From Patescibacteria group bacterium (GTDB lineage Bacteria > Patescibacteriota > Patescibacteriia > Magasanikbacterales > GWA2-37-8), in the NCBI GenBank assembly GCA_004321885.1, contig SCQK01000002.1, forward strand, positions 1-52,343: DNA of 52,343 nt, in the 5' to 3' direction. Of this stretch, positions 13,562 to 43,496 are shown one piece after another. Every line of letters starts with the position of its first letter. Position 1 is the stretch's first letter. The notes beneath the pieces are model-generated. The model was not told where the DNA came from. It worked only from the letters and a program-made list of their open reading frames with translations, and made no database searches. The translations under genes were made by a program, and so were the position numbers.

Positions 13562-13565
13562 GCAA

Positions 13566-18010: not shown

Positions 18011-18011
18011 A

Positions 18012-20015
18012 CTATTTTTTTTGCTTTGTCAAAGAAGCCAAATCAAGCACAAAAATTTTACCATCGTCAAAAATTCTTTTTCTTGATTGCCCCAATTCTT
18101 TCAAATTATCGTTAAAATCAAAGGTTACCTTGGCGCCATTGCTTATCCAAATGTTGGTCGCGAGCCTAACAGTATCGCCGTATTTTGATTGGGGGAAAAC
18201 CTCGGTCGCGTAAGCAAAAATCACATATCTGATATCCTTTGCCAACAAATATCGCGCCAGCGCTTCGCCGCCCTGATACGAAGGCATGCCCGGTGGCAAA
18301 GACGCCCCGCCCGGCAAATCAATAATATAAATTTTATTGCGCCTAAAATCAAACAAAAAAGGCTTTTCGGTCCTGGCCAGGGCTGTTCGCGTCGGCGGAA
18401 CCGCCTCTTGCGCTTTTTGATAGCTAATCCTTTCCTCGGCCGTGGAAGTGAAGTCTCCGCTTATTCTCTGGCCGGCCAGCGCGATTTTCAAGGACACGAA
18501 CTGCCTGTCGGCCAGATGAGAACCAATTAATCCAAGATTATTTTTAATGGCCGGTAAAAAAGCCGACAAACCGGCCCCAAAAATAATGGCGCTCACGGCT
18601 AAAGCCACCCGCTCGTATTTCCAAGAAGTTAAATAACCCCGCCAATTTTCAGATTGGCCGGCAAAAATAACCAAAAGCAAAATAACGGCCGTATGAACTA
18701 TGGGAAAGGTATAATAAAAAACGCTAAGCCCGGCGGTGAGAAAGGCAATGGCCGCGACGGTCAAAACAGTGGCCCAAATAATCAATTTCAGACGGCGGCG
18801 CAACCCGTCGTTATGGGGCCCGGGCAGAGATTTCCAAACAAACAAGAGCAAAAAAAATAAAATAATAAACAGGACATTGGCCAGATTATATAATAATGTA
18901 AGCAAATTAGCGAAAGTGAGCCGTGAGTAAGGCAGGGCGTAGACCCCGTAAACAGAGCCGTGAAAGCCCTTGCCGAAAATCGGATAAAGCAGAGTGCCGG
19001 AAGACTGATACAATAAAATCATCCACGGCAACAATAAAACAAAGGCGGCTAAAGCGGAAACGAGCAGCGATTTGAGCGCGACTATTTTTTCCGCGCGCGA
19101 GACGGATTCGCGATAAGACAGCCAATGATAAAAAATAAAATAAAAAAAACCAATGACGATAACATTTGATTTTATGGAAGACAGCGCGGCGATGATAAGG
19201 GCGACAAACAGCGCACGCCGCCAAAATCCGGGCCGTTCGGATTTGGCTTCAAAAAATAACTGCCCGAAAACCAAAAGCAAGACCGTGGAGGTTATCTGTC
19301 CGGTAATATTGCACGAGGCCGCAGAAAACAGGGCCAAAGAACCGGTGGCCAAAGCGGCCGTTCTCCGGGACGCGCCGAATTTCCTGAACAATTCCCAGAC
19401 CAACAAAATTAAAACAAGCCAGCTGAGGCCGCGGTCAAATAAATTCAAATAATCATACGGCAAAACCGCCAACACAAATGTATCCAAAAAAGACTGCCCG
19501 CCCAAGGCCCCGGTGAGCCGCCGGTCGCTAAACGGCTGGGCGCCCAGGGCGCCGGTTTCCAGCATCTCGCCGCTGTAAACAAAATAGGCCTGGTAATCAT
19601 CAAGCGGGTTGGCAGGCGTGTAGGCCGCGACAATGTATTGATAAGACAGGATCAAGACAAGGCCGATAAAAAGCAGGGCAAAAATTTTATCTTTCTTAAA
19701 GTCGTTAAATAATTTTGCCATGTTGGCGCCAGTGACGCGCCAGCGGCGCAAAACAAAAAACAATAATAAAATGACGCCCAAACCTAAATAAATAATGACT
19801 GCTTTTGGCGAGACGGCCGAGAGCCAATTCATCACGCCGCCGACAATAAGGCTTAGCGCCAAACCAAGAGCGGCCTTAAATCCCAAACCGTGTTTTTGGC
19901 GCGGCCGCAACAAAGAAAGCGCGGCCCAGCCCCAGCCGAGCAGGGAAAAGAAAATAACCACCCCCCATAATAAAGAAAAAATTCCGGTCCTAAACATAGC
20001 TACGTTTTCAAACAC
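18012..20015 (-). CDS. Large polytopic membrane protein, putative GT-C fold glycosyltransferase (ArnT/PMT-like) or polymerase
   Basis: 667 aa with at least 12 predicted TM helices and a roughly 200-aa soluble C-terminal domain. It lies directly downstream of a DPM1-like GT2 polyprenyl-phosphate sugar synthase. Confidence 0.45.
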   Translation of the reverse strand: MFENVAMFRTGIFSLLWGVVIFFSLLGWGWAALSLLRPRQKHGLGFKAALGLALSLIVGGVMNWLSAVSPKAVIIYLGLGVILLLFFVLRRWRVTGANMAKLFNDFKKDKIFALLFIGLVLILSYQYIVAAYTPANPLDDYQAYFVYSGEMLETGALGAQPFSDRRLTGALGGQSFLDTFVLAVLPYDYLNLFDRGLSWLVLILLVWELFRKFGASRRTAALATGSLALFSAASCNITGQITSTVLLLVFGQLFFEAKSERPGFWRRALFVALIIAALSSIKSNVIVIGFFYFIFYHWLSYRESVSRAEKIVALKSLLVSALAAFVLLLPWMILLYQSSGTLLYPIFGKGFHGSVYGVYALPYSRLTFANLLTLLYNLANVLFIILFFLLLFVWKSLPGPHNDGLRRRLKLIIWATVLTVAAIAFLTAGLSVFYYTFPIVHTAVILLLVIFAGQSENWRGYLTSWKYERVALAVSAIIFGAGLSAFLPAIKNNLGLIGSHLADRQFVSLKIALAGQRISGDFTSTAEERISYQKAQEAVPPTRTALARTEKPFLFDFRRNKIYIIDLPGGASLPPGMPSYQGGEALARYLLAKDIRYVIFAYATEVFPQSKYGDTVRLATNIWISNGAKVTFDFNDNLKELGQSRKRIFDDGKIFVLDLASLTKQKK

Positions 20016-20018
20016 AAA

Positions 20019-20798
20019 TTAAACAACCGGCCGCTCATATTTTTCATAAGAACGCAAACCAGCCTTATGCAATAGATACTGGCAAACCGACTTCATTATT
20101 AAAGCCGCGTATTTTAGGCCGTTGACATAACAGATTTCATCGCCGTAATACGTCGGAATCGGCAATTCCACGATTTTTAGCCCGCGGTCCACGAATTGAA
20201 TGATAATCTCGCTGTCAAAATGATAATCGCCGGTATTTTTTTGAAAGTTAACCATTCGCAAAGCCTTGGTGGTATAGGCGCGATAGCCGGAGTGCCACTC
20301 GGACAGCCTGGCGCCGGTGGCCAAATTTTCCAAAAAAGTCAAAACCTTATTGCCGACGTATTTATAAAAAGGCATGCCCCCGCGCCGGGCCGCGCCTCTT
20401 ACAAGCATGCGCGAGCCAAAAACCGCGTCGGCCTTTTCCTCAATCAGCGGCGCCAAAATGGCCGGCAGCATCTCGGGCGCGTACTGCCCGTCGGCATGAA
20501 GCATCACCACGATATCATAGCCTTTTTTGATGGCGTAGGCATAGCCAAGCTTTTGATTGCCCCCGTATCCTTCGTTGGCTTGATTGCGGAAAATGCTTAA
20601 CTTGTCCAGGCCGGCTTTTTGCTTCCAATCCTCGGCCACCAGATTGGTGTTATCCGGCGAAGCATTGTCAAAAATCATAATTTCCTCCACTATATTTTTA
20701 ACGCCGGCCGGGATGCGGTCAAGCACTTTGGTGATGGTGGAAGCGGCGTTATAAGCCACAATCAGAATGGCGACTTTTTTTTGCATAAACAATGGCAA
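20019..20798 (-). CDS. GT2 polyprenyl-phosphate glycosyltransferase (dolichyl-phosphate mannose synthase / ArnC-like, soluble type)
   Basis: 259 aa with a GT-A N-terminus (VAILIVAYNAASTI...) and the motifs DNASPDNT and DADGQ. Confidence 0.7.
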   Translation of the reverse strand: MPLFMQKKVAILIVAYNAASTITKVLDRIPAGVKNIVEEIMIFDNASPDNTNLVAEDWKQKAGLDKLSIFRNQANEGYGGNQKLGYAYAIKKGYDIVVMLHADGQYAPEMLPAILAPLIEEKADAVFGSRMLVRGAARRGGMPFYKYVGNKVLTFLENLATGARLSEWHSGYRAYTTKALRMVNFQKNTGDYHFDSEIIIQFVDRGLKIVELPIPTYYGDEICYVNGLKYAALIMKSVCQYLLHKAGLRSYEKYERPVV

Positions 20799-20799
20799 T

Positions 20800-21699
20800 T
20801 TAATTGAGTAAACGACTATTTGGTTGCATTCTCGCCAGTATGTCGGAAAAAATATTTTCCAGACTATTAAATTGAAACTGAAATGTTTCTTGCGCCGCTT
20901 TTGAATTAGTGGAATTTAAGAGCGGCCGGCGGGCAACCTGCCCCAACAATTTCGTTTCCACCGGGATTATTAAGTCTTTGTTCCAGCCCATAAATTGACA
21001 AATTTTTACAGCAAAGTCATAGCGGCTCATGGATTCGTTGCCGGTAGCTAGAAACGTGCCGTTGAGCGCGGCGCTTAGCGTTTTTTTAAGCAACCGGCAA
21101 AAATCCATCACATAGGTGGGATTGCTGATTTGGTCCAAGGGCACGCGCATTTCCCGGCCCTCTTTCTGCTTGCGGTAGAGTTGCATAAAAAAATTCATGC
21201 CGTTGTCATCCCAGCCGTATATAACCGTGGGCCTAAGGATGATATGATTTTTTAAGGCCGACACTATTTTTTCTCCGGCCAGTTTGGTTTGGCCGTAATA
21301 TTGCAGGGGATTGGGGCAGGCGCTCTCGTCAAAATCGCCCTTGACACCGTCAAAAACATAATCCGAGGAGATAAAAATTATTTTCTTGTCATTTTGATTT
21401 GCCCATTCCGCTAACATCTTAACCGGGGCGATATTTTGCCTGTCGGTCAGCTCTTTTTCTTGCTCACATTTTTCCACATCAGAGAGCGCGGCCAGATGCA
21501 CGATTTCATCCGGATTAAAACCGCGCAAAACCTCAACCATAGCCTGTTTATCGCTGATGTCAACGACCGCGTCAACAACATTGCTTTTGCTGGCGCGGTC
21601 AACGCCAAAAACGTAGAAATTTTCATCTGACTTTAAAATTTTATACAGATTTTTTCCGACAAACCCGCCGGAACCGGTAATGAGTATTTTTTTAGCCAT
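20800..21699 (-). CDS. dTDP-4-dehydrorhamnose reductase-like SDR (RmlD-like)
   Basis: Start trimmed to MAKKILITGSGGFVGKNL (ATG at 21699). This start overlaps the rmlC-like stop in an ATGGCTAA arrangement. It is about 300 aa with an RmlD-like architecture. Confidence 0.6.
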   Translation of the reverse strand: MAKKILITGSGGFVGKNLYKILKSDENFYVFGVDRASKSNVVDAVVDISDKQAMVEVLRGFNPDEIVHLAALSDVEKCEQEKELTDRQNIAPVKMLAEWANQNDKKIIFISSDYVFDGVKGDFDESACPNPLQYYGQTKLAGEKIVSALKNHIILRPTVIYGWDDNGMNFFMQLYRKQKEGREMRVPLDQISNPTYVMDFCRLLKKTLSAALNGTFLATGNESMSRYDFAVKICQFMGWNKDLIIPVETKLLGQVARRPLLNSTNSKAAQETFQFQFNSLENIFSDILARMQPNSRLLN

Positions 21700-22147
21700 G
21701 TTTGATGTCCCAGTTGTAATTAATGTCTTTGGTAGACGGGTCAATGCGAATTATTTCATCCTGGTCGTGCGGCTCGGTGGCGCAATTGGCGACGATGGCT
21801 TCTTCCGAACCGACGCCCTTAAAACCATTCACCACTCCGGCCGGCACCCGCACCAGGCAATAATTCTTGTCGCCCATAAATATCTCCTGTATCTCGCCCC
21901 TTGTTTCGGAATCAGGCCTTTGGTCTGCCAAAACCAGTTTGATATTGCCGCGGACAACCGCGTAATGCAAAGCCATTATTTTGTGCAAATGCCAGGCCTT
22001 TACGGCCCCGGGATAAACAGTGGAAAAATAAATTTCCCCGAATTTTTCAAATTCCGGGTCGTCGTTTCTTAGCATGTGCATCACCGAGCCCCTTTCATCG
22101 CAAATTTTACTTAGCGGTTTGATGATGACGCCTTTAATCATACACAA
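21692..22147 (-). CDS. dTDP-4-dehydrorhamnose 3,5-epimerase-like cupin (RmlC family)
   Basis: 151 aa cupin with an RmlC-like core (GEIYFSTVYPGAVKAWHLHK...). Confidence 0.65.
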   Translation of the reverse strand: MCMIKGVIIKPLSKICDERGSVMHMLRNDDPEFEKFGEIYFSTVYPGAVKAWHLHKIMALHYAVVRGNIKLVLADQRPDSETRGEIQEIFMGDKNYCLVRVPAGVVNGFKGVGSEEAIVANCATEPHDQDEIIRIDPSTKDINYNWDIKHG

Positions 22148-22164
22148 AATTAGTGAATAAAAGT

Positions 22165-23226
22165 TTACGTTTTTGGTCCGCGTTTTTTTATGATAAAATA
22201 ATTTTGTTTTAGCATCTCCAAAATTTTTATTTTTTTAAGTGGCCGGTATAGCTTGGCCATAAATCTTTTCACAGCCGTCCGCCTTCTCGCACGCCGGCCC
22301 GCCAGTCTTTCGTTTTTTTCCAGCTCCAAGGCCTTGGCGGGATTAATTGTCCTACGTTTGGCCGCGGGGAGCGGCTGGTCTATAATATTTCTTAGAAAAT
22401 CTTCAAAACCTTGTTTCACTTTTTCAAAATCAGCGCCCGGCGCGACAATGGGCTGATTAATTATTTCTAAATACAGGTCGTCATCGTTGTCTATTTCTTT
22501 AACGCGCGCCACCACCCGGTCAAAACTCTCATAATTATGACAACTGATAAAACGGCGGTCGTTAAACTCGCGGCCGATCTCGGGGTTGCCCCAATAAATC
22601 GGAATGGTTCTGGCCGCGATGGAGCTGGCTATTTTCTCGGTAGTGTAGCCCAAGCGGGAAGAATTTTCAAAAGCAATGGAAAATTTATGCTTGGACTCAA
22701 AATCCAATTTGCTTTCAATTATTCCGCCGACATTATTCAAATAACGGCCGCCGGCGCTTATTTTTTTATACTGGCTCAGCTTATCAAAAAAATTTTTGCG
22801 CCTTTCATCGGCCAAATAATTGGAATACACAAAACTGCAAAATTCGGTTTTTTGGGCCAAATCGGCCCTGGTAAACGGCTCTGGTTTGGTAAAATCCGGG
22901 CCAATGCGAGCCGCCTCATTCTTGTCGTAGAATACCATGACATGATAAAGCGGATAGCGGTAGTATCTGTCTCCAAAAATCATGTAATCATAGCCGACGG
23001 CGTAGTCGCACAAATTAAAATTCGGGCTCACATTTTCGCCGGTATAAAATATCCTGACGCAATTATACTTCAAATATTTGTAGGACGACTCATTGTAAAA
23101 TACGTAATCCGGCTTTTCGGAAATTTCAACGTCGTAATATTTTATCAGTATTTTGTATATAAAATTATCGCGAAAATCCTGTTCGCTGTCGTCGTAGCCG
23201 CAAATTTTAACGCGTATTTTTCTCAC
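22165..23226 (-). CDS. Glycosyltransferase family 10 (alpha-1,3/4-fucosyltransferase-like)
   Basis: 353 aa containing the GT10 signature KFSIAFENSSRLGYTTEKI (consensus YxFxLxFENSxxxxYxTEK) and a FutA-like N-terminal motif (IFYTGENVSPNFNLCDYAVGYD). Confidence 0.75.
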   Translation of the reverse strand: MRKIRVKICGYDDSEQDFRDNFIYKILIKYYDVEISEKPDYVFYNESSYKYLKYNCVRIFYTGENVSPNFNLCDYAVGYDYMIFGDRYYRYPLYHVMVFYDKNEAARIGPDFTKPEPFTRADLAQKTEFCSFVYSNYLADERRKNFFDKLSQYKKISAGGRYLNNVGGIIESKLDFESKHKFSIAFENSSRLGYTTEKIASSIAARTIPIYWGNPEIGREFNDRRFISCHNYESFDRVVARVKEIDNDDDLYLEIINQPIVAPGADFEKVKQGFEDFLRNIIDQPLPAAKRRTINPAKALELEKNERLAGRRARRRTAVKRFMAKLYRPLKKIKILEMLKQNYFIIKKRGPKT

Positions 23227-23233
23227 AAAATTG

Positions 23234-24169
23234 TCATTTAATAATGGCGATTATTTGACTCAAATACCGCGGGTCAACGCAATCATCCGGATTTCTTTCA
23301 TGAATCTCGTTAAAATATTTATACTTTACCTTTTCTTGTTTCTCGGCCTTTCTTAAAAACATTTCGTATTCCATGTCAAGATGGCCAATATCAATAACCC
23401 GGTATCCCAATAAAAATAAATCATACGCCAATACCTTGGCAGTCGGACCCAAGGACAACAAAATTAACTTGTCTTTGCCGATTTTTGCCGCTTCATTTTT
23501 AATCGCTTCGTACTTATCAAAGGCGTTTTCGGGCGGACACAGTATTCTGTGCAATGATTTAACGCGACTAAACATATCGTTTCCCACGCCCAGCCGGCTT
23601 TTTGCGCCCTCAATTAGCGCCACGTCCTTCCCTTCCCAAATGAAAAATAATTTTTGAAAAGTATTCTGACAGCCGGATTTATCCTTAAAAGCCAGGTAAA
23701 AACGGGTCATATTCATGTTGCCGTATAGACGGTCGTAGGACAACAAACTCTTCCAGACATGCCCATACCTATACAAATGATGCATACTAAACCAAAAAGC
23801 GTAATCTTCCAGTCCGTTCAATTTTTCCCACATGCCCGGAATACAAATTAACAACCCGTCCAAATTTGATTGCAAAATCTGCTCCAGTCTCGCGGCTAAT
23901 TGCGCGTCCTGCTTTTGAAACCCCAAATCAATGCCGTCTAACAACGATATTTCGCCGTCGCCGAAACGGATAATCGAAAGATTTTTTTCAATTATCAAAT
24001 CAATGGTTTCATTAACAGACAGCACTTTGGGCCGTTGGCGATTTGGTCTGAAATAAATATTAAAATAATACAACACAAAAGCAATGACCGGGCCGATTTT
24101 GTGCCGAATGGCCAAAGGCGTCCTTTGCCGTATTTTTTGAAGAATAGATTGAAGCAAGGATTTTTTCAC
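23234..24169 (-). CDS. Putative GT-D type glycosyltransferase (DUF1792-like)
   Basis: 311 aa with an N-terminal TM helix and a DxE-type motif (IRFGDGEISLL) resembling the metal site of DUF1792/GT-D enzymes. The assignment is weak. Confidence 0.35.
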   Translation of the reverse strand: MKKSLLQSILQKIRQRTPLAIRHKIGPVIAFVLYYFNIYFRPNRQRPKVLSVNETIDLIIEKNLSIIRFGDGEISLLDGIDLGFQKQDAQLAARLEQILQSNLDGLLICIPGMWEKLNGLEDYAFWFSMHHLYRYGHVWKSLLSYDRLYGNMNMTRFYLAFKDKSGCQNTFQKLFFIWEGKDVALIEGAKSRLGVGNDMFSRVKSLHRILCPPENAFDKYEAIKNEAAKIGKDKLILLSLGPTAKVLAYDLFLLGYRVIDIGHLDMEYEMFLRKAEKQEKVKYKYFNEIHERNPDDCVDPRYLSQIIAIIK

Positions 24170-24789
24170 ACTGTTTTCAATTTTAAGTAAGAATTATTCC
24201 CGTCCCAAAAAACCAGGCGATAGCCAAACTGTTTTAAGAATTTGTAATTGCCGCCCTCCAGGCAAATAACAGCCGCCTGATACCTGCTCCAGTCATTGCT
24301 TTTCAACACGGCCTCTTCAAAATTTTCCACGTCAATCGTCATGAAATCCACTGTCCTTAGATTATTTTCCGCAAAAATTTCCCTGAGCGGCTTTAATTTT
24401 ATTTTTCTGCTTTTCGTAATCCCCCGCGCCGCGGCCAATTCTTTCACGCAGGTGGCGCCTGATGATTCGTTTTCATCGCCAAAATACTCAACCTCGCCCT
24501 CGCCCACGGCGCAGTTTAAATTAATATCTTCCAGTCTCTTTTCACAAAATAATTTATAACCGATAGGGCTTGGCTCAATATTTATCCCCCGCCAGCCTCT
24601 TTCATAAAATAATTTGGTGTTGCTGATTTTATCCGGATGATAAGCCCCGATATCTATGTAAGTTCCTTTTTCTTTATAGCCGGTCAGCCAGTCAATAACA
24701 TTATCCTCGTTTAATTGGGAATAAGAAAATTTGTTTTTGAATCCGAAAAGCCTCACTAAAATCCGGCCCAAATAATATTTTAGATTCAT
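24166..24789 (-). CDS. FkbM-family SAM-dependent methyltransferase (probable sugar O-methyltransferase)
   Basis: 207 aa with an FkbM-type motif (GTYIDIGAYHPD) and a class I MT fold. Confidence 0.65.
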   Translation of the reverse strand: MNLKYYLGRILVRLFGFKNKFSYSQLNEDNVIDWLTGYKEKGTYIDIGAYHPDKISNTKLFYERGWRGINIEPSPIGYKLFCEKRLEDINLNCAVGEGEVEYFGDENESSGATCVKELAAARGITKSRKIKLKPLREIFAENNLRTVDFMTIDVENFEEAVLKSNDWSRYQAAVICLEGGNYKFLKQFGYRLVFWDGNNSYLKLKTV

Positions 24790-25619
24790 ACAATATCTTT
24801 CAACATCCGTTCCTTTGACGCGCTGTAATCTTTTTCCATTGATTCCAAAGTCAAACCGTTTTCCAATTCATACAGCCGCATATAAACCATAAACCTATAG
24901 AAAGCATGTAATATCGCCACATTAAACCCCTTGACGCCGCTTCTAAAAAAACGCTTATAAAAAAGGAAAAAATACCTACACATCGCGCCCAGCATCAAAA
25001 AAACGCTAAACTTCTTTTTTTTCTCGAATTTATACCATGCCTCGCTTTCAGCGCAATAAAGATGCCTTGCGATATATTTACGCATATCATACAAACTATA
25101 ATGATGGATGGCGTATTTTTCTTCCATGGGCAAGGTCAGTATTTCATCTGCTGTGCCGGTAAACCGGCCAAACCCATGCAAATAATTGCCGGAAAAATCG
25201 ATGCTGTCCTTTTTAAAAAATCTGGGGTTATAGCCTTTATGGGCCGGGTATTTTGTTTCGCCCCACAAATAAGTAAACATCGGAACTCTCGCGTATTTAT
25301 ATTTATCCTGCAGGGAAATCTCGCGCATTTTCTCCAGTAGTTCAACCGGCAGCATATAATCCGCGCACCCCCAAAAAATCCAACTGCCGTCCTTGACATA
25401 TTGTCTGACAAATTGATACATTCGCTCATCTTCCGCCTCTATTATTTCGTGCGGTCTGGTGATAAATTTTGCTCCCAGCCCCTCGACAATCTCTTGGGTT
25501 CTGTCGTCGCTAGCATCGTCAAAAATTAGCACTGCGCCGTATTTGGTGAGATTACGGACAACATAGCCAATTCTTTTCTCCTCATTTTTGGTAAAAATTA
25601 CGAAAGCAATGTTTCTCAT
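24786..25619 (-). CDS. Glycosyltransferase family 2
   Basis: 277 aa with a GT-A N-terminus (IAFVIFTKNEEKRI...LIFDDASDDRT). Confidence 0.7.
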   Translation of the reverse strand: MRNIAFVIFTKNEEKRIGYVVRNLTKYGAVLIFDDASDDRTQEIVEGLGAKFITRPHEIIEAEDERMYQFVRQYVKDGSWIFWGCADYMLPVELLEKMREISLQDKYKYARVPMFTYLWGETKYPAHKGYNPRFFKKDSIDFSGNYLHGFGRFTGTADEILTLPMEEKYAIHHYSLYDMRKYIARHLYCAESEAWYKFEKKKKFSVFLMLGAMCRYFFLFYKRFFRSGVKGFNVAILHAFYRFMVYMRLYELENGLTLESMEKDYSASKERMLKDIV

Positions 25620-25645
25620 ATTGTAATGGAATGAAAAAAATAATT

Positions 25646-26539
25646 TTAAGCCGAAAAAAAATCCACAGTTTTCTGCAGGCCGTCGCGCCAGTTAATGACC
25701 GCCCGCCAATTAATCTTCTCATTAGCCGACAAATCGGCCCGGGAATCCATTATCTCATTTCCGCGATAATTCAATCTGCCGAATGCCAGCGCAGAACCGC
25801 TTTTGGTGATTCCTTTCAAATAGGCGACAGCCTCTTTGATGGAAACAGAACGGCCGTGGCCAATGCCAAACTCTTGATAATTTTCTAAAACCGGATAACT
25901 CTTAAAAACCTGAACAAACGCCCGGGCCACGTCATCCACGAATATAAAATCGCGTTTCTGGTCTCCGTTGGTCAACTCTATATTTTTAGCATTGGAGAGC
26001 AATTCTTTAATAATGGCGGGAATAAATTTTTTGGCGCTGTCGCCCGGACCGTACATTTGTTCTATTCTTAAATTAAAAAATTTGATTTTTATCTGCGGCG
26101 CGGCGTCTCTAACTATGGCCAAAAAATCCTTTTTGGTTTTAACATAAAAATGCTCATGGCTGGCAAAGCTCATTTTATCGTTAAAAAAAGTATCGGCGTT
26201 AATGAAACATTGGACTCCCGCCTGCTCACCCGCAAGCAAAAGTTGAAGGGGCAAAAGCAGATTAACTCCGGCGATTTCGTGCCAGGGTTCATCGTTTCGG
26301 CCGTAGCAAGTGGCCGTATGGATTATAGCGCTGATTTTATACTTAAAAAAACACTCTTTCAAATCATCTTCGCCTAAAAAAATTTTCACTAACCGCGGAT
26401 GATTCGCGAATGGTTTTAGGCGCTCGCCGGCAGAATTCCGGCGCACCAAAACAACCGCGCGACAGCCTTCGGCCAAAAACAATGCTGTCACTTTTGCTCC
26501 TAAAAAACCAGTGGCGCCGGTTATCAAAACTGTTTCCAT
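25646..26539 (-). CDS. NAD(P)-dependent nucleotide-sugar reductase/epimerase (SDR; CDP-abequose/paratose synthase-like size)
   Basis: 297 aa with a Rossmann motif (ITGATGFLGAKV) and an SDR core. Its size and context suggest a 4-ketoreductase acting on a CDP-4-keto-3,6-dideoxyhexose. Confidence 0.55.
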   Translation of the reverse strand: METVLITGATGFLGAKVTALFLAEGCRAVVLVRRNSAGERLKPFANHPRLVKIFLGEDDLKECFFKYKISAIIHTATCYGRNDEPWHEIAGVNLLLPLQLLLAGEQAGVQCFINADTFFNDKMSFASHEHFYVKTKKDFLAIVRDAAPQIKIKFFNLRIEQMYGPGDSAKKFIPAIIKELLSNAKNIELTNGDQKRDFIFVDDVARAFVQVFKSYPVLENYQEFGIGHGRSVSIKEAVAYLKGITKSGSALAFGRLNYRGNEIMDSRADLSANEKINWRAVINWRDGLQKTVDFFSA

Positions 26540-26540
26540 A

Positions 26541-27431
26541 TCATTTTTTTCTCCAGCCCATTTTTTTAAGAATCTTTTTTATCAATTCCTTGAAAGACAC
26601 CCAGCAGCCGCGAATTAAAAAGTAGGCATAAACTTTAGAGCGCGAAATCGGCAAGCCATATAAATTTGCTATCCAGAACACGGCTCGGGCCGTGCCCACG
26701 CTACGTTTATAATTATTCTCAAGCCCCTGGTACGAATCCCAGCGCAAATTATCATTGCGCGTTTTTATGAATGGCTCGGCCAACAAGGCAAACCGGCTGT
26801 TCTTAAAAGCCTGCAACAAGACAAAAAAATGGATGGTGCTGGTGCCGATATACTCATTTTTTGTTTCAAAATCCAGCCATGTTTTTCTAAGAAATAACTG
26901 CGTGGACATGCCGCCGAAAAAACCGACTAAATCAAGATAATTTTTAATTGACTTTACAAAATCGGCTAAGGTATCGTAAACCGCATCCTTTTCCAATTTT
27001 TGATTTGGCTGCGACAGGACCGGTTCTTTAAGCCAGTGGTCATAACCCCAGCAATTAAGCATAAAATAGGGGGCGCCGATGGTTTTAATTTTTTCAAGCA
27101 ATAACGCAAAACTGCCCGGGAAAAAACCATCATCATCGCCGATAGTCAAACAATACTGGCCCGAGCTTTGTTCAATGGCATTTAACAAATTCCGGTCAAA
27201 GCCCAGATTTTCTTGATTGCGCAAGTATCTGATATTGTCAAAATTTTCCTGGTAAGTTTTGACGACTGCCATGGTATTATCTGCACTGGCATTGTCGGAA
27301 ATAACAACTTCAACTTGCTCGCAAACTTCCTTATTATCAAATTGGCAAACAATACTGTTCAAAAGGTCTTTCAAACAGTCCGCTCTGTTGTATGTTGGAA
27401 CGCAAACGCTGATTATTTTATTGCCGGACAT
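26541..27431 (-). CDS. Glycosyltransferase family 2
   Basis: 296 aa with a GT-A N-terminus (ISVCVPTYNRADCL...VVISDNASADNT). Confidence 0.7.
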   Translation of the reverse strand: MSGNKIISVCVPTYNRADCLKDLLNSIVCQFDNKEVCEQVEVVISDNASADNTMAVVKTYQENFDNIRYLRNQENLGFDRNLLNAIEQSSGQYCLTIGDDDGFFPGSFALLLEKIKTIGAPYFMLNCWGYDHWLKEPVLSQPNQKLEKDAVYDTLADFVKSIKNYLDLVGFFGGMSTQLFLRKTWLDFETKNEYIGTSTIHFFVLLQAFKNSRFALLAEPFIKTRNDNLRWDSYQGLENNYKRSVGTARAVFWIANLYGLPISRSKVYAYFLIRGCWVSFKELIKKILKKMGWRKK

Positions 27432-28702
27432 AACTGAGGCTCTTTAATTCTTTTGTAATAGAGATACCAAAGCAGGACAACGATAATAAACATCTCCAAA
27501 GATTTGAAAGCAAAAAGCGTCATCATGGGCTGACTGCCGAAGATGGGAAAGAGCAGCCACTGGGATATGGACAAATAAAACAGGGCCTGTAAAAGAAAAT
27601 CATAAGCCGTAGACAAAGCCGGACGCATGTTCCAATAAGCGGTGAACATAAATAAATAATAAAGCCCATTATGCAGACCAGAAGCGGTGGGAAAAAATGA
27701 AACAAAAAACATTAAAGTCCCGAACTCCAGCAGAATTAAACTATTGTCGGCATCCGCTATTTTTTTTATCCTATTCATTCTATAGGTCAAGTAATAAAAT
27801 GCCGCGGAAATAATTAAAATAAGCGTCAGCGCAATAGTCTGCGCTTGGGAAAGGCTTAGTAAGTGATAGGTAAAACGATTATAAAACAGGCCCCCCAAAC
27901 TAGCGCTCCACCCGCCGGCATTGATTGAATCAGCGCCGAAACTGAACGTGGCGGCCATAAAATCCGTCAGCATGTCAAAACCAAACCACAACGTGAAAAA
28001 AGCCAGAAAAACCAGGGTGGAGTAAAAAACCGTTTTATTCTTGATGAAAAAATACGGCAGAAAAACTATCGGCATTAACTTGAACATGATGGCGGCGGCC
28101 AAAAGCAAGCCGGTAATTTTATATTTCTTTTTCAAATAGAACAGCAAACACAAGGAAAGCAAAAATATGACCGGCACATTTGTCTGCCCGTGGTCAAGAT
28201 GAAGAAAAAAGAACGGCGAAAATAAAAAAACCAAAGCGGCAATGATAAAATACCACATTTTCTTGCGCATGAAACTGCTTAAAATATAAATGGACCACAT
28301 AAACAGCGCTATCGTAAACATGCTATAGACAATCAGGGAAACATAAAAAGGAAGCAGGCTGAAAGGGATGAAAAAATAGGCCATGAGCGGGGGATAAACA
28401 AACTGAACAATAAAATGGGGCAGTGAAAGTTCGTTGGGATTGGGCTCGTTGGGCGAGGCGAAATAAAAATTCTTGCCCTGGCTCGCTTTCAAGCCAGCGT
28501 AATAGAAGAAATGATAATCTGAACCGCCGAGGCCGCGGCTAACGCTCGGCGAGAAAAGTTGGCGGTTGTCCAGTTGCAGGGGATACCAGCCGAAAACAGC
28601 CGTAATCACGAATAAAAAAACCAGCCCGCCCAAATAAAGGGCGAAAAACGGCGACCGTAGCCAGGTCTCTTTTGGCGATTCTTGATTTTCGTTAAGCATC
28701 AT
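27413..28702 (-). CDS. Polytopic membrane protein, putative GT-C-like glycosyltransferase (DUF2029/GT87-like) or O-antigen polymerase-like
   Basis: 429 aa with 10-12 TM helices and a conserved loop (SDYHFFYYAG). It lies downstream of gtrA/gtrB in the position of a GtrC-type transferase. Confidence 0.4.
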   Translation of the reverse strand: MMLNENQESPKETWLRSPFFALYLGGLVFLFVITAVFGWYPLQLDNRQLFSPSVSRGLGGSDYHFFYYAGLKASQGKNFYFASPNEPNPNELSLPHFIVQFVYPPLMAYFFIPFSLLPFYVSLIVYSMFTIALFMWSIYILSSFMRKKMWYFIIAALVFLFSPFFFLHLDHGQTNVPVIFLLSLCLLFYLKKKYKITGLLLAAAIMFKLMPIVFLPYFFIKNKTVFYSTLVFLAFFTLWFGFDMLTDFMAATFSFGADSINAGGWSASLGGLFYNRFTYHLLSLSQAQTIALTLILIISAAFYYLTYRMNRIKKIADADNSLILLEFGTLMFFVSFFPTASGLHNGLYYLFMFTAYWNMRPALSTAYDFLLQALFYLSISQWLLFPIFGSQPMMTLFAFKSLEMFIIVVLLWYLYYKRIKEPQLCPAIK

Positions 28703-30009
28703 ACGTAACCCCTTAAAAATTCATTAAAACATTCCACCACATACTCCAGCATCTCTTTGTTCAATCCCGGATAACAACCCACCCAAAAAGTGTTGTTCAT
28801 GATGAAATCAGTATTTTTTAAATCGCCGACAACGCGGTAATTGATTTTATTGTCTATAAAATATGGCTGCTTCAATAGATTGCCGGCGAACAAATAACGG
28901 GTGGCAATATTATATTCCTGCAAAAACCGTACCAGCTGGTCGCGATTAAACGGCGCGTCTTCTTTGACAGTCAGCAAAAAGCCAAACCAGCTTGGCTCGG
29001 CCTTTTCTTCCCACACAGGCAAAACAAAATATTTTTCGTATTTTTTCAGGCCATCATATAAAATCTGAAAATTTTCCCGGCGCCTCTGTATAAAATCGTC
29101 AAGCTTCTCCAACTGGGCCACGCCAATGGCGGCTTGCAGGTCAGTCGGCTTCAAGTTATACCCGATTTCCGAATAAATATACTTGTGGTCATAGCCAAAC
29201 GGCAACTGGCCCAATTGCCAGCCAAATCTCATGCCGCAGGTGTTATCATGCCCGGTTTTACAGCAGCAATCCCTGCCCCAGTCTCTGATAGACCTGATAA
29301 TTTTGTTGAGCAGAGGGTCGTTCGTAAACACGGCCCCGCCTTCACCCATAGTGATATGGTGCGCCGGGTAAAAACTCAAGGTCGCCAGATGTCCAAAAGT
29401 GCCGGTTCGCTGGCCGTTAAAAGTTGACCCGAGGGCGTCGCAGTTGTCTTCTATCAGCCACAAATCTTTTTCTTTGCATAACTTTACGACAGCGTCAAGA
29501 GCAAACGGGTTGCCCAGAGTATGGGCAATCATAATGGCCCTGGTTTTTGGGCCGAGGGCTTTTTTAATTTCTTCAATGCTCGCGTTATAAGTTCCCAATT
29601 CCACGTCAACAAAAACCGGAACCAAGCTATTTTGAATTATCGGATTGACAGTGCTGGGGAAACCCGCGGCCACTGTAATAACCTCATCGCCGTCTTTTAA
29701 TTTCTTATTCCCTAATCTGGGAGACCGCAAAGCCGCGACCGCCAAGAGGTTGGCCGACGACCCGGAGTTGGTAATATTCACATACGGCACTCCCAGCCAG
29801 CGGCCGAGCCTGGCTTCAAATAAGTCGGAAAATCTTCCCTCGGTCCACCAGCCATCTAGAACCGCTTCGGTCGCCAGCAAAATTTCTTTTTCGTCAAAAA
29901 CTTTTCCAGAAATGGGAATCGATGTTTCTCCAGGAATAAATTTTTTAAACGGAAATTTTTCCCTATACTCTTGAATCAGCCTACTCTTCAATTCTTCGTT
30001 CATAAACAA
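28699..30009 (-). CDS. ddhC: CDP-6-deoxy-D-xylo-4-hexulose 3-dehydrase (E1; PMP-dependent DegT-fold dehydrase with [2Fe-2S] site)
   Basis: 436 aa DegT/DnrJ/EryC1 fold in which the Schiff-base Lys is replaced by His (FYPAHHITMGEGGAVFT). A Cys cluster (RDWGRDCCCKTGHDNTC) follows. These features and the length (about 437 aa) are diagnostic of E1/RfbH rather than an aminotransferase. Confidence 0.85.
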   Translation of the reverse strand: MFMNEELKSRLIQEYREKFPFKKFIPGETSIPISGKVFDEKEILLATEAVLDGWWTEGRFSDLFEARLGRWLGVPYVNITNSGSSANLLAVAALRSPRLGNKKLKDGDEVITVAAGFPSTVNPIIQNSLVPVFVDVELGTYNASIEEIKKALGPKTRAIMIAHTLGNPFALDAVVKLCKEKDLWLIEDNCDALGSTFNGQRTGTFGHLATLSFYPAHHITMGEGGAVFTNDPLLNKIIRSIRDWGRDCCCKTGHDNTCGMRFGWQLGQLPFGYDHKYIYSEIGYNLKPTDLQAAIGVAQLEKLDDFIQRRRENFQILYDGLKKYEKYFVLPVWEEKAEPSWFGFLLTVKEDAPFNRDQLVRFLQEYNIATRYLFAGNLLKQPYFIDNKINYRVVGDLKNTDFIMNNTFWVGCYPGLNKEMLEYVVECFNEFLRGYV

Positions 30010-30370
30010 AACGTTTGTTTAGATAAAAAGCTATGAAAGCCATGGGCAGAATCAGAATTGCTCCGGAAACATAATTGCTTACGCCTTTTAAGTTAAGAAA
30101 ACAAAGAAAAACAAGATTGATTAAATAGGTAAAAGCGTAAACACCAACAAACTTAAAAAGTAAATCGCGACGGTAAGAGGCGAAGACCAGCCGGCCGACG
30201 GTCTGAAAATTGAACAAAACCCCCAAAATAGTGGCCAGGAGCGCGGCCAAAGCATAATGCAGGCCGAAAAAAATCATAAGAGCAAAAACTCCATAGCCAA
30301 AAATTGTGTTTATTCCGCCGACCGCTAAAAAACGGATGAATTTATTCTCAAAAATTCGCCTCAAATTCAT
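29981..30370 (-). CDS. gtrA: GtrA-family small membrane protein (lipid-linked sugar flippase subunit)
   Basis: 129 aa with 4 TM helices and a GtrA signature (FIRFLAVGGINTIFGYGVFALM). Confidence 0.75.
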   Translation of the reverse strand: MNLRRIFENKFIRFLAVGGINTIFGYGVFALMIFFGLHYALAALLATILGVLFNFQTVGRLVFASYRRDLLFKFVGVYAFTYLINLVFLCFLNLKGVSNYVSGAILILPMAFIAFYLNKRFVYERRIEE

Positions 30371-31305
30371 ACATTAAAATTTATTCTTTCCTTTTCAATC
30401 ACCAGCGGCCGGTTTTTTACCTGGGTGTAAATGGCCGCGATATATTCCCCCAAAATGCCGACGAAAAAAAGCTGCATTGAGCCGAGAAAAAAGAACCCAA
30501 TGATAAGCGGCGCCAATCCCAACTGGAATCTCTGCCAATAAATTAACTTATAAATTAAATAGGCGAGGCCGAGCGCGAAACTTAGGGCCGATAGGACAAA
30601 GCCAATAAAGCTGGCCAACCGCAAAGGCAATTTAGAGTGATTGACAAAACCCAGCATGGCCACGCCGTACATGGTATACCAATTCCTGCCTTTTGATTTT
30701 CCTTTCTTTCTTTCATTCTGCGTGTATTTGAGCTCGGCATGCTGGAAGCCAACCTCGTTAATCATGCCGCGAAAATAAGGATCCGGATCGTCAAATTTTC
30801 TGATGGCTTCAATAAACTCCCGGTCATAAAGCCCGAAGCCGTGAAAATTTCTAATCTGTTCAATATCCGCGATTTTCTTGATTAAAAAATAATACAGCTT
30901 GCGGATATTAAACATTATGCCGCCCTCCTCGCTTTTATTTTTTATGCCGACAACGACCTTGTAGCCCTCTTCCCATTTTTTGATAAAATCCTTCATCAGG
31001 GCAGGCGGGTCCTGCAAATCGGAGACCAGCGATATAACCGCGTCACCCCTGGCCTGCAGCAAAGCGTGATGCAGGGAAGAGGCATGAAAATTGCGCGAGT
31101 TAACTATAATTTTTACATGCTTGTCTGCTTGCGCGATGCCTTTTAGTATGTTCACGGTCTCATCCGTGGAAGCGTTATCAATAAAAAGATGCTCGTAGTC
31201 GTACTGGGGCAGCTGGGCGAAAATTTCTCTAACTTGCAGATAGACATCCTTAATATTTTCTTCTTCGTTGTACGCGGGGGTGACCACGCTGATTAATTTT
31301 GCCAT
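30367..31305 (-). CDS. gtrB: GtrB/ArnC-type polyprenyl-phosphate glycosyltransferase (GT2 with C-terminal TM helices)
   Basis: 312 aa with a GT-A domain (ISVVTPAYNEEENI...DNASTDET) and two C-terminal TM helices. It lies upstream of gtrA. Confidence 0.8.
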   Translation of the reverse strand: MAKLISVVTPAYNEEENIKDVYLQVREIFAQLPQYDYEHLFIDNASTDETVNILKGIAQADKHVKIIVNSRNFHASSLHHALLQARGDAVISLVSDLQDPPALMKDFIKKWEEGYKVVVGIKNKSEEGGIMFNIRKLYYFLIKKIADIEQIRNFHGFGLYDREFIEAIRKFDDPDPYFRGMINEVGFQHAELKYTQNERKKGKSKGRNWYTMYGVAMLGFVNHSKLPLRLASFIGFVLSALSFALGLAYLIYKLIYWQRFQLGLAPLIIGFFFLGSMQLFFVGILGEYIAAIYTQVKNRPLVIEKERINFNV

Positions 31306-31313
31306 AAAATTTT

Positions 31314-32360: not shown

Positions 32361-32361
32361 G

Positions 32362-33522: not shown

Positions 33523-33524
33523 AT

Positions 33525-37304: not shown

Positions 37305-37312
37305 AATCGTAA

Positions 37313-37375
37313 TGAGTGAACAAAATTGTTTTGAATATCAAAACAATTTTTGAACGAATTAGATTATATGCCTAA
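37313..37375. promoter_or_regulatory. Two perfect hairpins in the ddhB-rSAM intergenic spacer (13-bp stem AAAATTGTTTTGA/TCAAAACAATTTT and TATATGCCT-AA-AGGCATATA)
   Basis: Seen directly in the sequence. The first hairpin lies about 20 nt upstream of the rSAM start codon on the minus-strand mRNA. Confidence 0.4.
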
Positions 37376-39162: not shown

Positions 39163-39174
39163 ACAAAATTACGG

Positions 39175-40062: not shown

Positions 40063-40070
40063 ATAATTGA

Positions 40071-42498: not shown

Positions 42499-42508
42499 AC
42501 CGATTGTC

Positions 42509-42528
42509 ATTCCTGCGCAAGCAGGAAT
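42509..42528. promoter_or_regulatory. Perfect 8-bp inverted repeat ATTCCTGC-GCAA-GCAGGAAT 11-30 nt upstream of the HTH gene start (candidate operator or leader hairpin)
   Basis: Seen directly in the sequence. Confidence 0.4.
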
Positions 42529-43448: not shown

Positions 43449-43455
43449 TCTTTAT

Positions 43456-43490: not shown

Positions 43491-43496
43491 AAATAC

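Follow-up and report, generated by a model that had tools for sequence, protein, structure and literature searches.

The closest described relatives of the locus considered here are the three-component glycosylation systems, reportedly reviewed by Mann and Whitfield in 2016. In the Gram-positive systems CsbB/GtcA/YfhO, GacI/GacL, PgfS/PgfM1 and GtrB/PgtC2, a GT2 synthase and a GT-C enzyme act in extracytoplasmic glycosylation of teichoic acids, rhamnan and Ser/Thr-rich proteins. The GtrA/GtrB/Gtr* system for O-antigen glucosylation in Shigella and Salmonella is a three-component system, and the pentofuranose system encoded by ORF12-15 of Citrobacter youngae employs a GT136 GT-C enzyme together with a MATE/MOP flippase instead of GtrA (PMC11127046).

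The DNA analysed here (the window, 52,343 bp) is one complete contig of a Patescibacteria (CPR) MAG, and statements of absence in this text cover this contig. Patescibacteria are commonly taken to have neither an outer membrane nor LPS, which renders moot the contrast with classical O-antigen synthesis drawn in an earlier sequence-only reading. The ORF map and Pfam reveal a single co-directional glycan operon of 29 genes on the minus strand (12779..42259), with intergenic gaps of ≤59 bp throughout and many overlaps, which contains both modules discussed below; the five ORFs named in that reading were all recovered on the minus strand, at the coordinates given for each below. The operon encodes at least 8 to 9 cytoplasmic glycosyltransferases (GTs) of the Leloir type (three GT2, two GT11, GT10, GT-D and GT1-like by Pfam), as well as methyltransferases, three radical-SAM enzymes, a CDP-hexose pathway, RmlC/D-like enzymes and an acyltransferase-epimerase fusion. 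Its first gene (40892..42259, minus strand; PF01943, PF13440; NCBIfam Wzx_EPS, 7.5e-18) encodes a MOP-superfamily flippase, in agreement with the earlier claim of a Wzx, and this protein may export a lipid-linked oligosaccharide, the lipid-sugar donor of module 1, or both. A convergent GT4 glycosyltransferase gene (11686..12795, plus strand; Pfam GT4/GT1) is situated at the operon end.

We regard it as fairly probable that the locus contains two three-component extracytoplasmic glycosylation modules, which decorate the glycan of this one large surface-glycan operon. A cytoplasmic GT2 (312 aa and GtrB-like in module 2, 259 aa and DPM1-like in module 1) would transfer one sugar from a nucleotide sugar to polyprenyl monophosphate, and the lipid-linked sugar would be flipped by the GtrA candidate in module 2, and by GtrA or the MOP flippase in module 1. 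A GT-C enzyme (GT87 in module 2, a 667-aa protein in module 1), with its catalytic Asp predicted to sit in the first long outer loop in both cases, would then pass the sugar on to an extracytoplasmic acceptor. The acceptor is probably a heteroglycan, made on a lipid carrier by the ~8-9 Leloir GTs of the operon and exported by the MOP flippase, and the modules would furnish it with sugars in side branches or at the termini. The gene for its initiating phosphoglycosyltransferase (PGT) would lie in another part of the genome. The architecture proposed earlier for both modules, a polyprenyl-phosphate-monosaccharide synthase paired with an extracytoplasmic GT-C transferase, is supported by family and fold assignments.

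Module 2 is a textbook three-component set of a GtrB-like synthase, GtrA and a GT87 GT-C enzyme. The synthase, a GtrB/PgfS/ArnC-type GT2 of 312 aa (30367..31305, minus strand), matches Synechocystis GtrB (5eke) over its full length (residues 5-303, E 3e-48) and ArnC with E values of 1e-24 to 1e-26; its top NCBIfam match is PgfS (7e-52, full length, below cut-off), and two C-terminal TM helices are present at 233-285. The flippase candidate (29981..30370, minus strand) is a GtrA-family protein (PF04138 GtrA_DPMS_TM, E 9e-14) with four hydrophobic segments, the gene of which overlaps its neighbours by 4 nt and 29 nt. The transferase (27413..28702, minus strand; 429 aa), labelled a DUF2029 protein by NCBI, belongs to GT87 (PF09594, 85.4 bits against a cut-off of 25). 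Its invariant residues are G60, D62 and Y67, of which D62 lies in the predicted first outer loop.

Between GtrA and the GT87 enzyme lies an RfbH/E1-type PMP-dependent NDP-4-keto-6-deoxyhexose 3-dehydrase (28699..30009, minus strand; NCBIfam RfbH, 690 bits against a cut-off of 423), which carries SFYPAHHITMGEGG, where the Schiff-base Lys is replaced by His, and a CCC...C cluster. No obvious E3 reductase partner was found in the window. The block of GT2, GtrA, RfbH-like DegT-family enzyme and GT-C is kept in three CPR genomes, and the GT-C partner within it is swapped, being GT87 in two of them and an MptA_B-family enzyme in the third; such an exchange within a conserved block is typical of three-component systems. 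The RfbH-like dehydrase probably shapes the sugar that module 2 transfers. Since an enzyme of this type is conserved within the module, that sugar is probably a 3-deoxygenated 6-deoxyhexose, possibly C-branched. Like the Gtr systems, module 2 unites its three parts in one block, namely a GtrB-type synthase whose C-terminal part has two TM helices, together with GtrA and a GT-C enzyme that varies. In contrast to those systems, which are carried by prophages and modify LPS, it is part of a Patescibacterium's primary glycan operon, its GT-C enzyme belongs to GT87 rather than to a Gtr* family, the dehydrase is inserted between GtrA and GT-C, and its sugar is unlikely to be glucose.

Comparison with ArnC/ArnT (with ArnE/F), which serve aminoarabinose transfer to lipid A, likewise reveals both shared and divergent features. 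ArnC is a PDB sequence match of both GT2s, and this locus, like the Arn one, has a DegT-family enzyme of aminotransferase fold. Nevertheless, the enzyme here is a dehydrase (His for Lys) and not an aminotransferase, and the host has no lipid A. The 667-aa protein of module 1 has no PMT_2/ArnT Pfam match, and it differs further from ArnT in its identity of 14% and in three extra N-terminal TM helices that it appears to possess. The Gram-positive systems share with this locus a monoderm envelope and, through PgfS, the top NCBIfam match of the 312-aa GT2, whereas the GT-C partners here belong to GT87 and to an unclassified family rather than being YfhO-like.

GT87 is also the family of PimE, and this bears on a reading in which the GT-C enzymes build the chain of a membrane-anchored lipoglycan, as PimE and MptA/B do in the mycobacterial PIM/LM/LAM pathway. 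An MptA_B-family enzyme takes the place of the 429-aa protein in one CPR relative, as noted above, and AftA, AftB, AftD and EmbA occur among the fold matches of the 667-aa protein. The similarity of the 429-aa protein to PimE (9dm5) is low, however (E 2.8e-6 over ~140 aa), each synthase is accompanied by one GT-C enzyme only, and phosphatidylinositol-mannoside or lipid-anchor genes are not found in the window, so that we give this reading little credence.

The synthase of module 1 is a DPM1/AglJ/PpgS-like GT2 of 259 aa (20019..20798, minus strand; PF00535, E 1e-18), for which no TM helix is predicted. AglJ (2e-21), Dol-P-hexose transferase and PpgS are its top NCBIfam matches, all below the equivalog cut-offs, and its sole PDB sequence matches are Dol-P-Man synthase (5mlz, 1.5e-9) and ArnC. 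As a control, two other GT2s from the window were searched against the PDB, and they match ordinary GT2s rather than Dol-P-Man synthase or ArnC. Judged by its sequence, the protein is predicted to be a polyprenyl-phosphate sugar synthase, and the earlier identifications of GtrB, GtrA and a DPM1-like GT2 are all borne out by these matches. A gap of 3 nt separates the stop of its gene from the start of that for the 667-aa protein. No dedicated small flippase adjoins module 1; that the operon's Wzx could fill this role has a precedent in the MATE/MOP flippase of the Citrobacter system. That system is further comparable in drawing its GT-C enzyme from a formerly unclassified family, but it uses a synthase of the phosphoribosyltransferase type instead of a GT2, transfers a pentofuranose and belongs to a Gram-negative O-antigen. 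Directly upstream of module 1 are genes for an RmlD-like reductase (PF04321, E 4e-58; TIGR01214, 193 bits, below cut-off) and an RmlC-like epimerase (PF00908, E 1e-10) at 20800..22147 (minus strand), and similar genes stand upstream of a homologous GT2/GT-C pair in a related locus. These enzymes are candidates for making the module 1 sugar, which would be a 6-deoxyhexose.

A TM-less GT2 paired with GT-C is also the arrangement of mycobacterial PpgS (Rv3631)/Rv3779 and Ppm1/PimE; the likeness extends to PpgS as one of the top matches of the 259-aa GT2 and to the GT87 membership of the module 2 GT-C enzyme. The differences are that every score here falls far short of its equivalog threshold, that neither Rv3779 nor PimE resembles the 667-aa protein in sequence, and that the mycobacterial acceptor (arabinogalactan or PIM) is absent.

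The transferase of module 1 (18012..20015, minus strand) is a polytopic protein of 667 aa (661 aa from the first ATG) with ~14 TM helices and no match in Pfam or NCBIfam. Its structure model is confident and adopts the GT-C fold, with ArnT, ALG12, PIG-M, Pmt4 and AglB at the top of the fold matches and Pmt2 and DPY19 among the others. The C-terminal domain (~505-667) is alpha/beta and predicted to be extracytoplasmic; searched alone, it matches the soluble domains of AftD, AglB, DPY19 and PglB. An invariant DD (139-140) lies in the predicted long outer loop, and in the model D139/D140, R165/R166, N236, K282 and the 340-350 motif lie on the same face as the C-terminal domain. An hhalign comparison with a GT87 set gave no match. 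On the strength of the model, we assign the protein as a GT-C enzyme of a new, unclassified and widespread family.

The family comprises ~2,600 representative sequences from CPR, cyanobacteria, Acidobacteria and PVC bacteria. A small GT2 gene lies directly upstream of the gene for the ~660-aa protein in the window and at six related loci, and of 78 genomes, 42 have a polyprenyl-P-type GT2 no more than 6 kb from a family member (37 of them within 2 kb); the other 36 loci have none within 6 kb, several of them with short flanks. A small 4-TM TMEM234-/GtrA-like protein stands alongside in 25 of the GT2-linked genomes, giving the cyanobacterial triad, and one Acidobacteriota genome has a family member within an array of PMT_2 GT-C paralogs.

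A further reading is a PGT-independent pathway that resembles N-glycosylation by archaeal Agl (AglJ, AglD, AglS, AglB), where Dol-P-linked chemistry runs without a PGT. The 259-aa GT2 would initiate on polyprenyl monophosphate, Leloir GTs would extend, the MOP flippase would export, and the 667-aa GT-C enzyme would transfer the entire oligosaccharide to protein or wall. STT3A, AglB and STT3B are the best full-length Foldseek matches of the 667-aa model, and both its TM part and its C-terminal domain, which is like the AglB/PglB/STT3 soluble domains, find AglB; AglJ is the best family match of the GT2, the contig has no PGT, and the operon has no other ligase or OTase. The AglJ score, however, is far under the family cut-off (76 vs 325 bits), the WWDxG motif is missing from the 667-aa protein and all 51 relatives, and the host belongs to the bacterial CPR. 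The cyanobacterial relatives are encoded in triads pared down to a synthase, a small flippase and the GT-C enzyme, with no GTs for extension, which fits monosaccharide transfer, and the syntenic operon of a close CPR relative has a Bac_transf PGT. Such a pathway is quite improbable here.

That PGT bears on how the acceptor glycan of the two-module reading would be initiated. Of the ORFs of ≥120 aa on the contig, none matches a Bac_transf or WecA-type PGT, Wzy_C or Wzz, and tblastn with the relative's PGT and a CPR Wzy_C protein gave no match in the window, so the earlier claim that PGT, Wzy and Wzz are missing holds for the contig. LCP ligase and O-oligosaccharyltransferase are likewise absent from it. 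As the modules share their operon with ~8-9 Leloir-type GTs and a MOP flippase, a lipid-linked oligosaccharide that needs an initiating enzyme is almost certainly built here. In the relative, a 55%-identical Falkowbacteria locus, the Bac_transf PGT lies at the end of the syntenic operon (5228-6598, opposite strand), a place occupied in the window by the convergent GT4 gene. That the genome encodes its PGT outside this contig is more likely than that it can do without one.

A large polytopic protein of no known family, in a Wzx cluster otherwise without Wzy, might itself be a divergent Wzy-type polymerase or WaaL/PglL-type ligase, since Wzy sequences are notoriously divergent; in that case the operon would amount to an ordinary Wzx/Wzy cluster. 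We consider this extremely improbable. The 667-aa protein has no Wzy_C or other polymerase Pfam match, its gene is recurrently and tightly linked to polyprenyl-P-sugar synthases, the Wzy_C search of the window found nothing, and Wzy, WaaL and SEDS proteins are absent from the top fold matches. Thus the two large membrane proteins, for which a Wzy or O-antigen ligase identity had been the contrary outcome, are classified as GT87 (429 aa) and GT-C fold (667 aa).

Besides decoration of an existing polymer, the sequence-only reading had proposed O-glycosylation of pilin or S-layer, relying on a type IV pilus operon said to lie at a distance of 2 kb. In fact the pil genes (PilB, PilC, PilM, PilN and PilO-like; 1220-6323, plus strand) stop 11,689 bp short of module 1, and the outermost sugar gene is 3,014 bp away from them, with a methyltransferase and the housekeeping YchF in between. 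No pilin gene and no pilin-type class III signal motif was detected in any frame of the window, and 91 related loci are all without pil genes in their flanking DNA. The pilin link is unsupported, because the pil genes lie 11.7 kb away and the window lacks a pilin gene. More broadly, one or both modules could, in the manner of PMT, PgfM1/PgtC2 or TfpW, act directly on proteins of the surface (pilin, S-layer or Ser/Thr-rich ones): in streptococci, Ser/Thr-rich stretches of proteins are glycosylated by GT-C enzymes that receive their donor from GtrB/PgfS-type synthases, PgfS leads the NCBIfam matches of the 312-aa GT2, Pmt4, Pmt2 and DPY19 are among the 667-aa fold matches, a pil assembly operon shares the contig, and pilin glycosylation is suspected in CPR. 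Direct protein O-glycosylation nevertheless seems rather unlikely, given that both modules are co-transcribed with a full glycan-building GT set, that the pil genes are on the other strand, and that fold matches to glycan- or lipid-directed enzymes (ArnT, AftA/B, ALG12) are just as good.

As a whole, the locus represents a system of known kind in which one GT-C family is new. That family, to which one of the two predicted transferases belongs, is widespread and so far without a name or prior study.

The window corresponds exactly to one whole 52,343-bp contig of a MAG labelled as a Patescibacteria group bacterium, and its proteins match those under locus tags EPN28_* (TAN34162-TAN34192) at 100%. 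The ORF listing and Pfam scans reveal the housekeeping genes for S6 and SSB, a block of type IV pilus assembly genes, and sugar-metabolism genes that continue without interruption from 9337 to the contig end. Twenty-nine minus-strand genes, running from 42259 down to 12779 with gaps of at most 59 bp and many 4-nt overlaps, constitute one operon-like array, and the region of interest (18012-31305) occupies its middle. The G+C content is ~0.50 in the flanks and 0.40-0.45 across 22-34 kb.

The sequence-only reading saw in this region two modules in which lipid-linked monosaccharide donors serve GT-C membrane transferases, and this use of donors is well supported by the GtrB/DPM1-like synthases, a GT87 enzyme and a GT-C fold. 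Residues 5-303 of the 312-aa GT2 of module 2 (30367-31305, minus strand) match the Synechocystis GtrB structure (5eke/5ekp) at E 3e-48, and the enzyme also matches ArnC at E 1e-24 to 1e-26. It possesses two C-terminal TM helices, as is typical of GtrB, and its top NCBIfam match is PgfS, at full length and under the equivalog cut-off. The gene that follows encodes GtrA (29981-30370; PF04138, E 9e-14). The 429-aa transferase of the same module (27413-28702) scores 85.4 bits against PF09594 (GT87/DUF2029; cut-off 25) over residues 101-310, shows a weak match to the solved PimE 9dm5 (E 2.8e-6) and falls short of the NCBIfam mannosyltransferase equivalog (26 versus 413 bits). Asp62, situated in the loop after TM1 of this protein, is invariant. 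The synthase of module 1, a 259-aa GT2 (GT2_259; 20019-20798, minus strand), has no TM helix. Its only sequence relatives in the PDB are the P. furiosus Dol-P-Man synthase (E 1.5e-9) and ArnC, and its top NCBIfam matches are AglJ, Dol-P-hexose transferase and PpgS, each under its cut-off. The DPM1-like assignment is specific, because two other GT2s of the window, used as controls, have chondroitin synthase, GalT1 and heparosan synthase as their leading matches and show no match to DPMS or ArnC. Both modules contain a GT2 of the DPM1/GtrB/ArnC type of polyprenyl-phosphate sugar synthases.

The gene for the 667-aa transferase of module 1 (18012-20015, minus strand) starts 3 nt after that of GT2_259. 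The protein has no match in NCBIfam or in Pfam (even at E 10), and a PDB sequence search with the profile of its family returned one spurious designed binder and nothing else. The AF2 model, obtained from an alignment of 51 relatives with pLDDT 89.3 and pTM 0.92, comprises ~14 TM helices followed by an alpha/beta domain at the C terminus. The best 17 Foldseek matches of the model are all GT-C enzymes, at TM-scores of only ~0.4. As modelled, the protein would adopt the GT-C fold, with an N-terminal TM module, a long first outer loop and juxtamembrane helices, and an acidic motif is present in the first long outer loop, as in GT-C transferases. The model helices place all invariant polar residues, Asp139, Asp140, Arg165, Arg166, Asn236 and Lys282, together with the segment GTLLYPxxGKG at 340-350, on the C-terminal-domain side of the membrane; the short loops on the opposite side hold twice as much Lys plus Arg. 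Because of this arrangement, we infer that the loop bearing the Asp pair (133-190, with two short helices) is the putative catalytic outer loop. The canonical GT-C core may be preceded by three additional TM helices.

Comparison with known transferase families does not assign the 667-aa protein to any of them. Alignment with four PMT_2 paralogs by hhalign is borderline (74% probability, E 2.9e-5, residues 234-452); by sequence, the protein does not qualify as a member of PMT_2/ArnT (GT83) or PMT (GT39), and its relation to PMT_2 would be that of a distant superfamily member at most. No relation to a GT87 set was detected by hhalign. Neither the protein nor any of the 51 relatives has the WWDxG motif of STT3/AglB/PglB (GT66), and membership in that family is rejected on this ground. 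An identity as Wzy or O-antigen ligase (Wzy_C) is rejected on fold, with no Wzy, WaaL, SEDS or MOP protein among the top structural matches. Both large membrane proteins, regarded as GT-C-like from the sequence, have retained that assignment, the 429-aa protein as a GT87 member and the 667-aa protein by its predicted fold, with no match of either to Wzy or a ligase. A DUF8201 tag on a few relatives of the 667-aa protein is a weak precomputed match that hmmscan did not reproduce. The extra domains of long relatives are extracellular beta-propellers or CHB_HEX_C, with one borderline match to DUF6541, and no Rosetta-stone fusion to a GT2 was found among these proteins. A literature search on DUF8201 and DUF6541 yielded nothing relevant.

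The 667-aa family is large. A profile search of 1.84 billion representatives recovered 2,640 members at E <=1e-3 and 1,457 at E <=1e-30, nearly all full length (620-690 aa), with ~2,600 clusters at 50% identity. Among GTDB representatives, the family is present in many filamentous cyanobacteria, in CPR lineages (Falkow-, Magasanik-, Sacchari-, Gracili- and Parcubacteria), and in Acidobacteriaceae, Planctomycetota, Verrucomicrobiota, Nitrospirae, Chloroflexota and others. Linkage was counted in 78 loci, where all ORFs of 90 aa or more were matched to a reference panel. A polyprenyl-P-type GT2 is situated within 6 kb of a family member in 42 of the 78 loci and within 2 kb in 37, and a small 4-TM protein resembling TMEM234 or GtrA is additionally present in 25 loci. 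In cyanobacteria, the arrangement is a fixed triad in which a 392-aa GT2+GT2_TM_C protein and a TMEM234-like protein of 130 aa accompany the family member; the top PDB matches of this GT2 are again DPMS, ArnC and GtrB. Close CPR relatives (loci L001, L002, L011, L015, L016 and L019) have a TM-less GT2 of 231-258 aa directly before the family member, and one Acidobacteriota genome holds the family member within an array of PMT_2 GT-C paralogs. Such synthases are few in any one genome, and by a rough estimate the probability of one lying within 2 kb by chance would be under ~1%. The observed linkage therefore argues strongly for the use of polyprenyl-P-monosaccharide donors by the family. Three-component systems of this type are already known and widespread; what is new is the GT-C family, which is unclassified, occurs widely and has a conserved context of synthase, flippase and transferase.

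The triad was observed in loci L003, L010, L017, L029-L035 and ~20 more from cyanobacteria (Microcoleus, Tychonema, Coleofasciculus and other Oscillatoriales), with a divergent GT2+GT2_TM_C gene, a GT-C member of 640 aa and, often close by, a second family paralog and a methyltransferase. It is an uncharacterised, highly conserved surface-modification system, carried also by the culturable Hydrococcus rivularis NIES-593. We also note that TM-less GT2s of 231-235 aa precede large Pfam-less proteins of 418-429 aa or 887-933 aa in CPR glycan loci (L006:17045-19846; L008:14622-19988; L013:18641-19897; L071:11253-12542). These partners may be further unclassified GT-C-type enzymes, and the pair of synthase and membrane transferase seems to be a recurrent CPR building block. 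CPR-like homologues of module 1, with 52% identity and the same gene order, also occur in contigs binned as Methanoregula sp. or 'Gammaproteobacteria' (L016/L011 on JALOBP010000091.1, L049 and L056), which points to mis-binning or horizontal transfer.

Module 2 includes a DegT-fold protein (28699-30009, minus strand) between GtrA and GT87, which scores 690 bits against the RfbH equivalog (cut-off 423). The Schiff-base (PLP-binding) Lys of aminotransferases is replaced in it by His-His, and the AHH in its SFYPAHHITMGEGG motif and a CCCx9C cluster are what we take to be the signature of E1-type 3-dehydrases. Score, His for Lys and Fe-S Cys cluster agree in identifying an RfbH/E1-type CDP-4-keto-6-deoxyglucose 3-dehydrase, and no E3 reductase partner was found within the window. 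The GT2-GtrA-DegT-GT-C block recurs in other CPR genomes: loci L006 and L007 have a GT87 72% identical to that of the window, L008 has two GT87 copies, one of them fused to an FkbM methyltransferase, and L012, a 963-kb CPR contig, has an MptA_B-family GT-C in its place. A constant synthase and flippase with an exchangeable GT-C is a hallmark of three-component systems (PMC11127046).

Upstream of this block, CPR relatives share a conserved set of epimerase, NeuB::cupin, HAD, TPP enzyme and NUDIX genes, which the window carries at 45.2-52.2 kb. There (45198-52181; compare L006, L007, L012 and L013), the set consists of an SDR epimerase, a NeuB::cupin fusion of 519 aa with thousands of relatives, a HAD phosphatase, an acetolactate-synthase-like TPP-dependent enzyme of 574 aa, a NUDIX protein and a RhaT-like DMT transporter. 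Together these genes may make an unusual sugar, possibly a branched or higher-carbon one; their TPP enzyme may resemble YerE of yersiniose synthesis. Inserted between this set and GtrB in the window are ~13 kb with Wzx, CDP-hexose pathway and radical-SAM genes. This stretch, at 31314-44320 between the NUDIX/RhaT genes and GtrB, is missing from the syntenic locus L006 and has the appearance of a cassette that varies within the glycan locus or was inserted into it. It holds an SDR, Wzx, a DUF268 methyltransferase, a GT11, cytidylyltransferase-like and 4,6-dehydratase-like genes, three radical-SAM enzymes (one B12-binding), a methyltransferase, an epimerase and an MBL-fold gene on the opposite strand.

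The sugars transferred can be approached through the neighbouring genes. Cytidylyltransferase-like (38338-39162) and CDP-glucose-4,6-dehydratase-like (37364-38350) genes, both under their equivalog cut-offs, are present. The window also has a C-methyltransferase-like gene and, among its three radical-SAM enzymes, one that depends on B12. With low confidence, the RfbH-type dehydrase probably feeds module 2, and together these genes tentatively suggest that the module 2 sugar is a 3,6-dideoxy hexose, possibly C-branched or methylated. That the donor itself is a polyprenyl-phosphate-linked 3,6-dideoxy or C-branched hexose we consider rather unlikely; to our knowledge, no such donor has been described. 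For module 1, the RmlD- and RmlC-like genes that precede it in the window and in the CPR locus L001 suggest, again at low confidence, a 6-deoxyhexose.

The operon encodes at least eight cytoplasmic GTs, all on the minus strand, namely GT2 enzymes at 12779, 24786 and 26541, GT11 at 13566 and 39175, GT10 at 22165, GT-D at 23234 and a weak GT1-like match at 17015, along with several methyltransferases and a MOP/Wzx flippase. By Pfam, a GT4 gene (11686-12795) is convergent with the operon. The simplest reading is that a heteroglycan would be built on a lipid in the cytoplasm, then flipped across the membrane and decorated outside by both modules. The GT-D enzyme (DUF1792; 23234-24169, Pfam E 1.6e-82) is encoded between an FkbM methyltransferase and the GT10 fucosyltransferase; its family was originally described in the glycosylation of a streptococcal serine-rich adhesin. 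An unusual fusion of 724 aa (14844-17018, minus strand) joins a 10-TM Acyl_transf_3 membrane O-acetyltransferase (25-355) to a nucleotide-sugar reductase, a GDP-L-fucose-synthase-like SDR (391-706), and is followed by a NUDIX gene and a GT11 fucosyltransferase-family gene. For the flipping of the lipid-linked monosaccharides, GtrA is the adjacent candidate in module 2. Module 1 has no adjacent small flippase; the only other candidates are GtrA, ~9 kb upstream, and the MOP flippase (40892-42259). Since a MATE/MOP protein has been proposed as the lipid-sugar flippase of the Citrobacter GT136 system (PMC11127046), the 'Wzx' of the operon is not necessarily an oligosaccharide flippase.

Pfam scans and tblastn, both covering the contig, detected no initiating phosphoglycosyltransferase (PGT), Wzy, Wzz, LCP or Wzy_C-type ligase on it. 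Among the Wzx/Wzy-pathway components (PGT, Wzx, Wzy and chain-length regulator), the contig carries the MOP/Wzx protein only. A Bac_transf PGT of a relative and a CPR Wzy_C protein gave no tblastn match in the window, and in two long CPR contigs no PGT was found in the 10 kb that precede the NeuB::cupin orthologue, where one of the two has a Wzy_C+TPR protein. In the Falkowbacteria locus L009 (55% identity), a Bac_transf PGT is convergent with the last operon gene, at the position held by GT4 in the window. An operon of this type is therefore consistent with initiation in the conventional way, by a PGT that this genome probably encodes elsewhere. A PGT-independent, bacterial counterpart of archaeal Agl, in which the AglJ-like GT2 of module 1 would start the glycan on a polyprenyl monophosphate and the 667-aa protein would attach it, appears very improbable. 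Were it true, the 667-aa protein would found a new class of GT-C oligosaccharyltransferases without WWDxG, and the finished glycan would go to an S-layer protein, a pilin or the CPR cell wall. Locus L012 (3975-6020) encodes a Wzy_C+TPR protein of 681 aa just upstream of the conserved sugar genes, as well as an LTD-domain protein of 914 aa. This Wzy_C protein may act as a ligase or as an O-oligosaccharyltransferase of the PglL type, and tblastn found no equivalent in the window.

A rival to the decoration of a flipped heteroglycan is that the modules glycosylate protein. Such O-glycosylation by a GtrB-type synthase and a GT-C does exist in monoderm bacteria (PMC12041528), and pilin glycosylation in CPR has so far been predicted only (PMC11623550). 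The preference for pilin or S-layer protein in the sequence-only reading drew on a pilus operon 2 kb away. The pil genes (1220-6323, plus strand) actually end 11.7 kb from the region and 3.0 kb from the nearest sugar gene, on the other strand, with YchF and a methyltransferase in between. A search for the class III signal motif of pilins, strict and loose, in all six frames of the window revealed no motif and no pilin gene. Inspection of the flanks of 91 related loci found no pil genes, a weak test in that these flanks span 6-10 kb and the pil distance in the window is 11.7 kb. With pilin gene and motif absent and the pil genes distant, that preference is not sustained, and protein O-glycosylation by the modules is retained as a minority rival. 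Apart from the pilus distance, the sequence-only observation is essentially correct. The pil set consists of assembly genes only (PilB, PilC, PilM, PilN and a T2SSM_b/PilO-like gene, the PilN and PilO-like ORFs overlapping by 134 nt as listed); no prepilin peptidase, PilT or pilin was found on the contig.

Little has been explored of the surface chemistry of CPR bacteria, which live on host cells. This bacterium, with its small genome, spends at least 30 kb on a surface glycan with two predicted extracytoplasmic decoration steps, and the conserved CPR block of NeuB::cupin, HAD, TPP enzyme, GtrB, GtrA, RfbH-like protein and GT-C hints at an unusual lipid-linked deoxysugar donor. The 667-aa family has no usable Pfam, NCBIfam or literature annotation, and one characterised member could found a new CAZy family, as happened with GT136. 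The linkage of the family recurs especially in CPR and in mat-forming cyanobacteria (Microcoleus, Tychonema and Coleofasciculus), and a characterised member could explain surface modification in these ecologically important cyanobacteria.
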